Shown here piece after piece: positions 6,148-9,597 of a DNA stretch of 10,544 bases. Within the stretch, counting starts at the first letter, position 1. Each line of letters starts with the position of its first letter. Where the stretch lies: positions 1 through 10,544 of the forward strand of contig JAJRZD010000075.1 of NCBI GenBank assembly GCA_024275415.1. Direction: 5' to 3'. Below the pieces are notes generated by a model. That model made no database searches. It was given only the letters and a program-made list of their open reading frames with translations, and was not told the DNA's origin. The position numbers were made by a program, and so were the translations under genes. This DNA comes from an archaeon. Its GTDB lineage: Archaea; Asgardarchaeota; Thorarchaeia; Thorarchaeales; Thorarchaeaceae.

Positions 6148-6901
6148 TTCATCCAATATTGAACACCCATTTGGTGCTCGTACAATTGTTGCAGACTGGG
6201 TTGCAAACAGCTGCGCTACACGTACTCAAACATGGACATCCCTTAGATGGACATTCGAAGTAAATTATAGGGCTTTATAGACTCGACCACTCCCACAGGA
6301 GTATGAGGTTATACATGGCTTACAAACGGTTTCGCAGAGTCTACCCAGTGCCGTTATCTGGGAGTACAACACTATGGTGTCAAAGATTGCACAACTAAAA
6401 ATGAACGGTATAATTCAGAATTAGCCATGAACCTTGTAGTTCGGTCAATTCTTGACAATCGAAATCTTAATGTCACACGAATCCTTTGGTTATGCCGGAG
6501 TGAACACATCGTATGACAAGATATCGTCGAGTGTTCTTGGGGCTCGTAATCATACTTCTAGTTGTTGCGAGCTTAGCCTATGTGCTCATGCCAACAGAGC
6601 GAGTTCTTGTCGAAAAGGATTTCTCTGCAATAGGAACCTACCCCGCGTACTACTATGCCAACTTCACAGTTGACAAATCAGACAGCAATGCAGCATTGAA
6701 AATACGTTTTAATGTGAACTCCTCTGAATCGCTAGATTTCATTTTCATTTGGGCATTGTATAATGCAACTGTTGAGCAATTCGAGCAGTCATTCAACATC
6801 ACACTGGCTGAGGAACTTGCGAACCAAGGTGATTGGGATAAGGAAGACTGGATCTGGTATGGCTGGATGTACAGTAGCGTTTCTTTTCTCTACGCATACT
6901 A

Positions 6902-7033
6902 TTGAACTTGTCCAAACTTTTCACCTCCGCAAGGAGAAGCCTGGATTGAGCCCTGGTATGCGGACAGGGCTCGGTCAGCATAGGTCATGACAGCATTGGT
7001 GTGACGGTCCACAGCTTGTCCGCAGGACCTGCA
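6902..7033 (-). pseudogene. tnpB: 3' stub of TnpB (second Zn-finger CxxC plus degenerate RuvC-III)
   Basis: CRSCG-QAV-DRHTNAVMTYADRAL has the exact spacing of the TnpB motif CxxCG-x3-DRDxNAAxNI. H, V and T are each one base change from D, A and N. An in-frame TAG lies immediately upstream. Confidence 0.7.
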
Positions 7034-7040
7034 CTATTGT
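6902..7040 (-). ncRNA. Candidate omegaRNA/reRNA scaffold of the IS607-TnpB element
   Basis: Overlaps the tnpB 3' end. Contains a perfect 8-bp stem GAGCCCTG-9nt-CAGGGCTC (6948-6972) and a CTCC-TTGC-GGAG hairpin (6925-6936), and ends in TTCAA at 6906-6902. The 5' limit is unknown. Confidence 0.55.
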
Positions 7041-7061
7041 TCCGCTACGGGGTATATATGC

Positions 7062-7139
7062 CCCTTTGCGTTCCCACCTCCTCAAGGTGGAAGGTGACAC
7101 CCCAAGACGTTTTGCCATAATTCCGGTCCTGACTACCAT
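7062..7139 (-). pseudogene. tnpA: 5' stub of an IS607-type serine-recombinase transposase (MerR-like HTH)
   Basis: ATG 7139: MVVRTGIMAKRLGVSPSTLRRWERKG, continuing as HIYPVA after one extra G in a G-run. This matches the A-x-x-LGVS-x-x-TLRRW-x-x-x-G-x-I-x-P pattern of IS607 TnpA N-termini. The catalytic domain is absent. Confidence 0.78.
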
Positions 7140-7571
7140 GCCTGATGACAAGATTGGTAAGTTTTTTACTTTCTGCTAGTACGGTTGACACCCAATCTCT
7201 CCCGGCAACTATGTTTTCGTCTTCTGGATTGATCAAGAAGACCCGCCCTTCGATTGGTCTGGCACTCTTCACATCAGATTGAGGACTAGCTTGCTGCCAG
7301 CAGCTGAATAATACTGACCTGCAACCTGGAAGTCTTTTCCACGACTGTCGATTTACATCGGTGTTTTTTAGACGATTTTCGTTTGAACACTATTCCCTGC
7401 ACGCCTAATCTGACAATCTCAGGAGTTTCTTTGAACTCAGCCTAACGTAAACTAATTCTCTTTTTACATACACAAGAATCAAAAGACTGCATGAGCGTTA
7501 TTCCTATTTGACTTGGGAAGTACTACCTTTTTAGTGCTGTTTAGACCAATTCGCTAAGGGCTGGGAACAAC

Positions 7572-8288
7572 ATGACATCAATTGATGAAATGACTGCGGA
7601 TGAGCTGATTAGGAAGGTAAAAGGTCTAAGAAACTTAGGACGTTTTCGTACTTCGGCAAAAGGCCCTACTGGCGTCGGTGATACGCTAGAGGGATTACTA
7701 GGATTGCCCCGAACGAATATTTCACTCCCAGATTGGGGATCAATCGAAGTAAAAGCACACCGAAAAGGCAGTGGGAGCAAAATAAGTCTCATCTCACTGA
7801 AACCCATAATCCTAGGCGATGGAGAAAGAAGTACCATAATCAAGGAATATGGTCAAGAAAGCAGTACCTCTGGCAGAATTAATCTCTATATCACAATCTC
7901 TGCGAAATGTGAAAATAAGAATGGTTGGAAACTGAACATTGATTCTAAAAAGGGATACATCCTAATTCAATGCCGTGGGAAATCAATTGCTGAAACAAAT
8001 CTCAATGAACTTTATGAGAAACTAGAGCAAAAGGCAAAGAACCTTATCATTGTATATGCCAAGTCATTCAAGGAATCAAATACGGAATTCTTCGAATATC
8101 GTGCCGCTACGTTGTATAAGGATCTTCGCGCTGAGAGAATTCCAAGACTATTGACGATGGGAACAATGGTCTTTGAATGGCGTATGCATCTGAAATCAAA
8201 TGGCACTGTTCGTGATCATGGTCCTGCTTATAGGATATCTCCGAAAGACATGCACAGGCTATATGCCCATGTGGAGAAGATGTTCTAA
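7572..8288 (+). CDS. MvaI/BcnI-family type II restriction endonuclease
   Basis: GPTGVGDTLEGLLGL, NISLPD...EVK (PD-(D/E)xK), and RDHG near the C-terminus; convergent with an m4C methyltransferase. Confidence 0.85.
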   Translation: MTSIDEMTADELIRKVKGLRNLGRFRTSAKGPTGVGDTLEGLLGLPRTNISLPDWGSIEVKAHRKGSGSKISLISLKPIILGDGERSTIIKEYGQESSTSGRINLYITISAKCENKNGWKLNIDSKKGYILIQCRGKSIAETNLNELYEKLEQKAKNLIIVYAKSFKESNTEFFEYRAATLYKDLRAERIPRLLTMGTMVFEWRMHLKSNGTVRDHGPAYRISPKDMHRLYAHVEKMF

Positions 8289-8289
8289 G

Positions 8290-9597
8290 TCATCTCTTCT
8301 GTAAGATGATGATGTGTTCGTTGTGCATCGTGTCAGCCGAATATCCCTCTACATTTTCAGGTGCATTCTGCCAAGGCATACGCTTGGTAGGGATATCTCT
8401 CCCGATTGTCGTAATGTGTGCAAAGCCGATGTTTTGACCTAGCTCGACAATGATAGCATCCGTGGGTATTCTTATTCTGCTCATCAATCGATTGCCCACA
8501 ACGATACATGCATGGCTTCCGTTTTTTAAAGCATGATACATTGCAAGTAGCGATCCATTAAGGTCAAGAAAGAAGTTGAAGAACTGTTTGGCTCTTTTTT
8601 CACTATTCTTTAGTATTTTCTGGTAAGTTGTATCTAGTAAGGTGCTATTCAGAATCTCGGAGGAGTAATTTGAGTGGCTTCGACCGCCAAGACCAATCCT
8701 ATCCACCGATTTGAGCTTATCTTCTTCGATACCTGCCCATATGCCCGGATATCTGGAGAATTGACCATATGCAACTGTCGTTGAATGATCCCCATATGGA
8801 GGCGATGTAACCACAACATCGATTGAATTTTCTTCCAAAGCAAGCTCCCTGTTATCAATTGTATATATCTCTGCTGAGGGGTTTTCTCCCTCAAGTTTTC
8901 GAACGAATGACTCCATGAGACGTATGCATCGTTCTACGTGATTCCCAAAGGTTACTTGTACGTCTGGCTTGAAATCTTCCACTTTTGCTTGTCCCATATG
9001 TACGATTTTGAATTCGTTCTTCTTTAGATTCGAAACATCTCTTGCAGTGGATGCCAAACATAGACGCAGAAAGTCCCTGATATCCCCATCTGAAACCGCA
9101 AATACCTCATCTTTGATTTCTGCTAGATCGAGAATCACATCCTCTTTGAAATAGTATGTGGGGTTGTGCATGACCGGAATCTCTGCATCCTTTGTAGCCT
9201 TTTGCAATCGTTCGCGTGTTGCTTTCAGTACGTTATCACTGACTTTTCGTAGTTTCGCGATGTCCAATGGGGTCGTTTTCACCTTTGATAGGAAGGTGGC
9301 GAAAGGGTTGAGGTCCGTTCCTATAGAATTCCTCCCCATAATCATCGCCTCCACAAGAGTCGAGCCTGACCCGCAAAACGGATCCCATACCGGTTCCTTG
9401 CCCCTTGCATAGATTGTTACGAGTCTTCTTGCTATCTGAGGAATCATTCTTGCTGGATATGGGTGCAGGCCATGTGTCATGTATTTTGTGTCCACTCCAT
9501 TGAATGTCCAATCATCCAGTTGCTCTTTGTCGTGGGTGGTCAAGTAGTCATGCAGATTTCCTTGTTTCGCATCCATTGTTACCAGCATTCTTTCCAA
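8290..9597 (-). CDS. N4-cytosine DNA methyltransferase, alpha class, M.MvaI-like
   Basis: THGLHPYPARMIPQI, motif I DPFCGSGSTL placed before motif IV TSPPY, followed by GDHSTTVAYGQFSR. Start is TTG 9597, ATG 9588 or ATG 9576. The stop is 1 nt from the REase stop. Confidence 0.9.
   Translation of the reverse strand: MERMLVTMDAKQGNLHDYLTTHDKEQLDDWTFNGVDTKYMTHGLHPYPARMIPQIARRLVTIYARGKEPVWDPFCGSGSTLVEAMIMGRNSIGTDLNPFATFLSKVKTTPLDIAKLRKVSDNVLKATRERLQKATKDAEIPVMHNPTYYFKEDVILDLAEIKDEVFAVSDGDIRDFLRLCLASTARDVSNLKKNEFKIVHMGQAKVEDFKPDVQVTFGNHVERCIRLMESFVRKLEGENPSAEIYTIDNRELALEENSIDVVVTSPPYGDHSTTVAYGQFSRYPGIWAGIEEDKLKSVDRIGLGGRSHSNYSSEILNSTLLDTTYQKILKNSEKRAKQFFNFFLDLNGSLLAMYHALKNGSHACIVVGNRLMSRIRIPTDAIIVELGQNIGFAHITTIGRDIPTKRMPWQNAPENVEGYSADTMHNEHIIILQKR

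Follow-up and report, generated by a model that had tools for sequence, protein, structure and literature searches.

The locus considered here lies in the window, the whole 10,544-nucleotide stretch of thorarchaeal DNA analysed, where the coding sequence of a small protein is split into two parts read in different frames, which raises the question of what separates them:

6513-6891 (+): N-terminal part of the host gene, a signal-anchored protein with homologues in genomes G004, G031 and G063
7189-7311 (+): C-terminal part of the host gene (HPISPGNYVFVFWIDQEDPPFDWSGTLHIRLRTSLL...), matching the C-termini of the G004, G031 and G063 homologues

The plus-strand open reading frame (ORF) 6513-6905 ends in YAYY*, four codons supplied by the intervening DNA, while the homologues continue as ...P(I/V)xxxxYVFVFWIExxxP..., which the window encodes from 7189 in another frame. 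The intervening segment, 7183-6892 on the minus strand, is very probably a gene-less, non-autonomous deletion derivative of a Thorarchaeota IS607-family insertion sequence, with the following parts:

6892-7183 (-): whole element, 292 bp with both CGTs and a net insert of 289 bp, delimited by copy alignment, junction tables and per-segment identity
7184-7185 (-): target-derived A-C immediately before the left CGT
7181-7183 (-): left junction triplet CGT, containing the crossover dinucleotide CG or GT
7140-7180 (-): non-coding left end with the conserved block GCAGAAAGTAAAAAACTTACCAATCTTGTCATCAGG
7053-7139 (-): tnpA stub, the N-terminal MerR-type helix-turn-helix (HTH) of an IS607 serine recombinase, assigned with Pfam and NCBIfam
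7034-7052 (-): internal deletion junction, with the same sequence in all seven copies
6899-7033 (-): C-terminal stub of a large TnpB-like gene, 44 codons and TAG
6892-6894 (-): right junction triplet CGT, from the junction tables and the empty-site comparison

In the element about 130 bp remain on the left side and about 145 bp on the right, and both genes are reduced to stubs. On the minus strand an ATG at 7139, with a second at 7118, opens MVVRTGIMAKRLGVSPSTLRRWERKGAY in a frame translating as MVVRTGIMAKRLGVSPSTLRRWERKGAYIPR, and this 29-aa product (7139..7053; the stub spans 26-29 codons) matches Pfam MerR PF00376 (E=1.1e-8, 35.2 bits vs a cut-off of 28.2) and weakly matches positions 3-22 of the NCBIfam IS607 transposase model NF033518 (E=0.029). 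The MerR-HTH remnant that the earlier note had read from the letters alone is thereby supported above the Pfam cut-off. About 20-30 nt further on, in a different frame, the second stub starts at 7033 (CRSCGQAVDRHTNAVMTYADRALSAYQG...FGQVQ*; complete translation CRSCGQAVDRHTNAVMTYADRALSAYQGSIQASPCGGEKFGQVQ*) and contains the second CxxC of a zinc finger and a RuvC-III motif reading DRHTNA. Its identification as a tnpB C-terminus also stands, with 74% identity (tblastn, E=7.5e-13) to residues 484-525, the C-terminus, of a 526+ aa protein in the same-genus genome G006. The profile search proposed for both stubs thus succeeded for tnpA, whereas the TnpB-like stub alone has no Pfam match.

The segment is one of a repeat family. 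The genome of origin is a 3.5-Mb metagenome-assembled genome (MAG), 92.9% complete, in which the window is contig C55, and at least seven near-full copies of a repeat of about 290 bp were observed in it, 78-94% identical to the window copy:

C55 7185-6891: the window copy
C37 6842-7141: near-full copy, closest to the window copy
C5 10551-10833: near-full copy
C119 5312-5040: near-full copy
C8 13261-12978: near-full copy
C89 19600-19315: near-full copy
C29 6652-6397: near-full copy

At least seven solo-end fragments accompany them, left ends on C23, C43 (two) and C21 and right ends on C24 and C78 (two). Mean pairwise identity is 0.65-0.88 within the element and 0.22-0.26, the random level, in the flanks, so that the recurrence of the segment with unrelated flanks, the check that the earlier note had named first, is far beyond chance. 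Identity between copies is never complete and peaks at 94%, and the stubs are broken variably among copies; the internal junction is identical in all seven, indicating that one deletion founded the family, and the window copy carries an additional 5-nt gap at that junction. The copies are mostly intergenic, such as that on C37, and the left-end block is conserved in 11 left ends of the genome and can also be recognised in two parents described below, G009 and L031. Scans of the genome and metagenome collections with the motif of hairpin 1 (see below) returned full-length relatives only and no additional copies of the short form.

Parents were found in related genomes. The right-hand 110 nt of the element also match G006 and G009, the latter of the same family, where the matching right ends form the 3' ends of the 526+ aa ORF and of a 707-aa ORF, respectively; compared with G009, the right end is 83% identical and the left end recognisably related. 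In G009 a TnpA gene lies upstream of the large gene on the same strand, scoring 125 bits with NF033518 (IS607 family transposase), for which the cut-off is 110 bits, and also matching Resolvase PF00239; this TnpA gave no recognisable HTH match, the model being covered from position 40 only, and the region upstream of it aligns with the left end of the short element. An intermediate with tnpA deleted is present on metagenome contigs L031 and L032, where the same left end and a tnpA stub of 28 codons precede the large gene, which is complete, and the right end, and among other loci L029 is 5'-truncated and L100 has a frameshifted and truncated tnpA. Of 26 Asgard loci with family members, 5 (G009 and four more) have an IS607 TnpA directly upstream, and the parents in related Thorarchaeota combine an IS607 serine-recombinase TnpA with a TnpB/Cas12f-fold protein of 630-707 aa. 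Copies with different flanks, full-length parents and the tnpA-deleted intermediate together uphold the proposal of an IS607-type non-autonomous derivative with both genes as stubs; the full-length tnpA+tnpB parent that had been asked for was found in related genomes and is missing from the MAG itself, and no intact autonomous parent close to the short element was found. Full-length Thorarchaeota relatives, such as L021 7770-8393 (-) and L100 7368-7650, look decayed, and the HTH is better preserved in the stub than in any parent found.

The ends were set at nucleotide level from G009, and the boundaries of the window copy were transferred by alignment from the empty site of this full-length relative. 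The empty site in G024 and G033, sisters of G009, reads TTTCAC-CGT-CAGTGG, and the filled site in G009 runs from TTTCAC-CGT-TGCATT... to ...AGTATG-CGT-CAGTGG; a single CGT in the empty site and a CGT at both filled junctions indicate that no target was duplicated, as the earlier note had stated for IS607 elements in general, a result carried over from the parent to the window copy by alignment. The 3-nt stretch shared by both G009 junctions places the 2-bp serine-recombinase crossover (CG or GT) within it. Twelve left-end junctions show CGT (8), CGC (2), TGT (1) or CTT (1), preceded by A (11/12) and then C or T (12/12), while family right ends finish ...GTATGCGT and pass into unrelated sequence. 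The family target accordingly reads, from these junctions, as A-Y-CGT, and the GG preference ascribed to the element gives way to CGT junctions with A-Y upstream. GG is a trait of particular IS607 members and not of the recombinase mechanism.

These junctions move the element from 7190-6902, where it had first been placed, to 7183-6892. Its supposed terminus TTCAA (6906-6902) is internal, since conservation among copies and the right end of the parent both extend past it by 10 nt, up to ...AGTATGCGT at 6892. On the other side the other copies do not share the proposed left end TGTCAACC (7190-7183), which is mostly flank, the family junction being the CGT at 7183-7181, and the ATTGGG given as left flank does not abut the end defined for the family. 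Of the proposed direct repeat, TGTCATC belongs to the conserved left-end block, whereas its supposed partner is flank. The two sizes offered, 289 and 292 bp, were right as the net insert and as the element with both CGTs, but for the new position. A repeat search found no end-to-end terminal inverted repeat in the element. Repeats of 13-14 nt common to its left-end and right-end halves are conserved within the short family but not in G009, and were not counted as TnpA sites. [quoted passage not shown] For the window, C37 and C5 copies no clean empty site was found in same-genus genomes, because the flanking sequence is either repetitive or, at about 70-80% identity, too diverged. At L068 4411-4481 (-) and at L069, L071, L072, L074 and L082 nearly the same sequence directly follows the pseudoknot tip, and at L068 a tRNA gene occupies it on the opposite strand, which suggests that several Heimdall elements insert beside tRNA genes.

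The window copy appears from its two flanking halves to have inserted into, and killed, a small membrane-protein gene. The halves fall into one frame after removal of either 289 or 298 bp. Removal of 289 bp leaves an in-frame TGA two codons from the joint and a linker of 18 aa, whereas removal of 298 bp (7189-6892, GT on both sides) restores an uninterrupted ORF of 169 aa with a linker of 15 aa, compared with 19-20 aa in the homologues; the TGA of the one and the clean ORF of the other leave the left boundary of this copy uncertain by 9 nt. A 298-bp insert, from 7189/7190 to 6892/6893, is therefore a possible though clearly less probable reading of the window copy, one in which GT would stand at both junctions and TGTCAACC would be the right left end for this copy, whether through a shifted crossover or through a left end 9 nt longer and common with C37, which has a loosely similar TGACAC before its CGT. 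Yet the 9 nt are not conserved in the 11 other left-end junctions, the G009 empty site sets the junction at CGT, the 15-aa linker fits the homologues worse and a dead gene can acquire a stop. The family-level junction evidence and the better linker length favour 289 bp, so that a 289-bp insert followed by a later nonsense mutation in the dead gene would be the preferred history. The two readings predict different empty-site alleles: ...ATTGGGTAGAG... is expected for 298 bp, and ...GTCAACCGTAGAG... would contradict it. ORF scans across the junctions found several frames open, and a homologue search with the N-terminal part of the interrupted gene returned only that gene itself.

Two further features of the neighbourhood were observed. 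A gene for an MvaI/BcnI-type restriction endonuclease (7572-8288, +) adjoins a DNA methyltransferase gene (8290-9597, -), and the two beside the interrupted gene are likely a type II restriction-modification pair; an exact look-up of the endonuclease protein gave no record. Directly after nrdD lies an unrelated repeat of about 213 bp (6198-6410, +) without an Rfam match, which has at least 15 near-full copies (79-89% identical) in the same genome, at least 24 partial copies, mostly of the 3' ~78 nt (6332-6409), and further occurrences in the same-genus genomes G006, G003 and G001.

The present activity of the 289-bp family can be judged from the gene content of the MAG. No cognate TnpA and no full-length His-type TnpB-like gene (the type defined below) were found in the 92.9%-complete assembly; the only IS607 TnpA in the genome, on contig C57, is 33% identical to the family TnpA, from which its N-terminal HTH differs, and that element and the short family have no end sequence in common. 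The C57 element (~16160-14160, -; locus L085) is a canonical IS607 with a TnpA of 192 aa and a TnpB of 411 aa carrying DRD at RuvC-III, and it separates the N- and C-terminal halves of a galT-like gene, with no Rfam intron detected. On C120 (~7874-8107, -) an open frame of 360 aa fuses a TnpA-like fragment (…VTHRDRLARF…) to a TnpB with HADVNAA and is probably a frameshifted or fused IS607 remnant. Continued activity of the family, mobilised by the resident C57 element or by an unassembled cognate one, is improbable: a full IS607 does occur in the genome, 7% of the MAG is missing and repeats are often lost in assembly, and one pair of copies is 94% identical, but the C57 TnpA and its ends are as distant as described, many solo ends are truncated and no copies are identical. 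The absence of a matching TnpA or TnpB from a 93%-complete MAG makes present mobility doubtful, and together with the divergence of the copies (6-22%) and the many fragments it indicates that the family is probably stranded in this genome now.

The deletion had been said to spare the ends and an RNA scaffold, and the right end does retain a conserved, covarying hairpin and pseudoknot module:

6948-6972 (-): hairpin 1 ("nexus"), an 8-bp stem GAGCCCTG/CAGGGCTC with loop TCCGCATAC
6924-6937 (-): hairpin 2, CTCC-TTGC-GGAG, with compensatory changes in G009, L031, L029 and L030
6893-6899 (-): pseudoknot 3' strand GTATGCG, pairing with loop CGCATAC at 6962-6956 and forming the right-end tip
6872-6891 (-): flank directly 3' of the right end, a would-be omega-type guide by analogy with IS607 TnpB systems

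Both hairpins already marked by the earlier note (6972-6948 and 6937-6924) are real. The stem of hairpin 1 covaries across the family (CCCTG/CAGGG, CCCTC/GAGGG, TCCTC/GAGGA), and the pairing of hairpin 2 is kept by double changes in the Thor parents (CTCC/GGAG; CCC/GGG; TTC/GAA; GTCCT/AGGAC). A hairpin of 5-8 bp with a 9-nt loop and a perfect 7-nt complement of that loop 46-59 nt later was observed in 22-23 of 31 Asgard family loci. The scoring gave nine types of pseudoknot pair, eight after removal of a spurious pick at L075 (whose true pair is the common CGCATAC/GTATGCG), and at least six are genuine, distinct and covarying, such as CACACGT/ACGTGTG, TGCACGT/ACGTGCA, ACGCATG/CATGCGT and CACATAC/GTATGTG; a C-G to T-A change was found in L029. 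Loops pair 7/7 with their own partners vs a mean of 3.96/7 with swapped ones, and shuffled sequences gave a complement of at least 7 nt in 32 of 720 trials, at no fixed distance. The conserved loop is read in different frames across lineages, yielding C-terminal tails with SAYQG or with SPHTR or STHVRG, which points to selection on the nucleic acid and not on the protein. Because the single-sequence folding-energy z-score is modest (-1.67), support for the RNA comes instead from covariation; Rfam gave no relevant family, either in E-value mode over 6500-7600 or in gathering mode over the whole window and the parental loci. In TnpB omega RNA the nexus loop pseudoknots with the scaffold 3' end (bioRxiv 10.1101/2023.11.20.567912), and here too the module sits at the tnpB 3' end and right end with its nexus loop pseudoknotted to the 3' end of the scaffold, so the right end is predicted to encode an omega-RNA-like module. 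The 3' flanks, the would-be guides, differ between copies. Since one deletion founded the family, retention of the module may be accidental. A reading of the repeat as a small-RNA or regulatory element recruited by the host, and not as a transposon remnant, which its conserved structured RNA and mostly intergenic placement (e.g. C37) might suggest, is very hard to credit given the coding stubs of two transposon genes in parental order, ends common with autonomous elements, an empty site showing insertion, a gene destroyed by the window copy and a genome with no partner TnpB-like protein.

The transposon origin leads to the second gene of the parents, which is barely matched by sequence models (PF07282, E=0.005-0.009; NF040570, E=0.9). 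An exhaustive search yielded 132 cluster representatives of the large protein, the members in the genome collection all belonging to Thor-, Heimdall- and Hodarchaeota; in the collections searched, the IS607 lineage with this partner is confined to Asgard archaea. The AlphaFold model of the 707-aa G009 protein (65-sequence alignment; pLDDT 86.5, pTM 0.80) has as its top fold matches in the PDB Cas12f, ISFba1 TnpB, ISDra2 TnpB, Fanzor2 and other Cas12 proteins, and the family profile matches ISFba1 TnpB (E=6e-9) with a His aligned to the catalytic Asp. The RuvC-I Asp (D490) and RuvC-II Glu (E593) are conserved, whereas the canonical Asp-Glu-Asp triad of TnpB RuvC is broken at its third position, where His (H677) occurs in 96 of 102 proteins with a motif match, in at least 90% of the rows of family alignment A1 and in the window stub. 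The zinc finger, which precedes RuvC-III, is of the HCCC type. Across the whole Asgard family, as noticed at the Heimdall- and Hodarchaeota loci L061-L084, the TnpB-like proteins of 600-1700 aa have NTHxNAA, with His at the position of the RuvC-III Asp, and an HCCC zinc finger.

Comparison with known systems places the element among IS607 relatives with differences of its own. As in H. pylori IS607 and the C. botulinum IStron, a MerR-HTH serine-recombinase TnpA (seen in the stub, the G009 TnpA having no HTH match of its own) is followed on the same strand by a TnpB-type gene (in G009 and four other Asgard loci); as in the IS607 family, terminal inverted repeats and target duplication are absent, the same short core stands at both junctions (in the G009 parent), and a guide-RNA module overlaps the tnpB 3' end and right end. 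In place of the GG of H. pylori IS607 and CboIStron stands a core of CG or GT within CGT with A-Y upstream, and unlike IS607 relatives the partner has 630-707 aa with a RuvC-III His, the host is an Asgard archaeon and the window copy is gene-less. In CboIStron the TnpA target is also the TnpB TAM (TGGG), and the inner right end reads TCGG, one position different (10.1101/2023.11.20.567912); the target motif may be partly mirrored inside the right end in the same way here, ACCGT vs TGCGT. IS607 TnpA moves a gene-less mini-element in trans, and for the Cbo mini-IS the requirement is about 40 bp on the left and about 60 bp on the right (10.1101/2023.11.20.567912). The window element resembles this engineered mini-IS (CboIStron without tnpA and tnpB) and the PATEs of IS200/IS605 in being gene-less, with ends only and a transposase in trans; it differs from the mini-IS in being natural and multi-copy and in keeping about 145 bp of right end with the whole hairpin and pseudoknot module, more than the Cbo minimum, and from PATEs, which use Y1 transposases and hairpin ends. 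The parental protein shares with ISFba1 TnpB-reRNA (PDB 8IAZ), ISDra2 TnpB and Cas12f, its best profile and fold matches, the RuvC-I Asp, the RuvC-II Glu and a zinc finger before RuvC-III, and is set apart from them by about 300 extra N-terminal residues, the HCCC form of the zinc finger and the His at RuvC-III. A change of the RuvC-III Asp to His is described for TnpB branch RIIIr-4, where it is read as a rearranged and not a dead site (Altae-Tran et al. 2023, PMC10691335); RIIIr-4 is without a zinc finger and goes with RHH/MazE genes, whereas the Asgard family keeps the zinc finger and goes with IS607 TnpA. Archaea-restricted, serine-recombinase-linked TnpB branches have been catalogued as Ser-6 and RIIIr-6 (PMC10691335), and the Asgard family might correspond to one of these.

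In the most probable history the parent coded for two proteins, a serine recombinase (TnpA) whose N-terminus is a MerR-type HTH and a TnpB/Cas12f-fold protein of 630-707 aa with His at RuvC-III, and a single internal deletion fused tnpA, at codon ~26-29, to the final 44 codons of the TnpB-like gene. By analogy with the Cbo mini-element, mobilisation would take place in trans: a cognate TnpA would excise the derivative as a circle and insert it at A-Y-CGT, with a crossover of 2 bp inside the CGT and no duplication of the target. Through the RNA that was kept, vacated sites could in addition become open to a cognate TnpB-like protein, and such an element would be a "double parasite" whose ends and guide-RNA module borrow TnpA for movement and the His-type TnpB-like protein for copying back into the vacated A-Y-CGT, an extension that is speculative and rather unlikely.

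In kind, such an element is expected; its added value lies in the defined ends, the A-Y-CGT target motif and the covariation-supported guide-RNA fold that it provides, at nucleotide level for the ends, for an Asgard-restricted IS607 lineage with a His-type partner. For annotation, the element accounts for a broken membrane-protein gene and for several ORF-free gaps in the MAG. The engineered IS607 mini-element has in it a natural counterpart, with the RNA module kept, which offers a compact substrate for two questions, whether TnpB-like proteins of this unusual type act on DNA by cutting or by binding, and whether TnpB homing is exploited by elements without genes; if the borrowing of both proteins were true, the Asgard-specific proteins with His at RuvC-III would be active RNA-guided enzymes.
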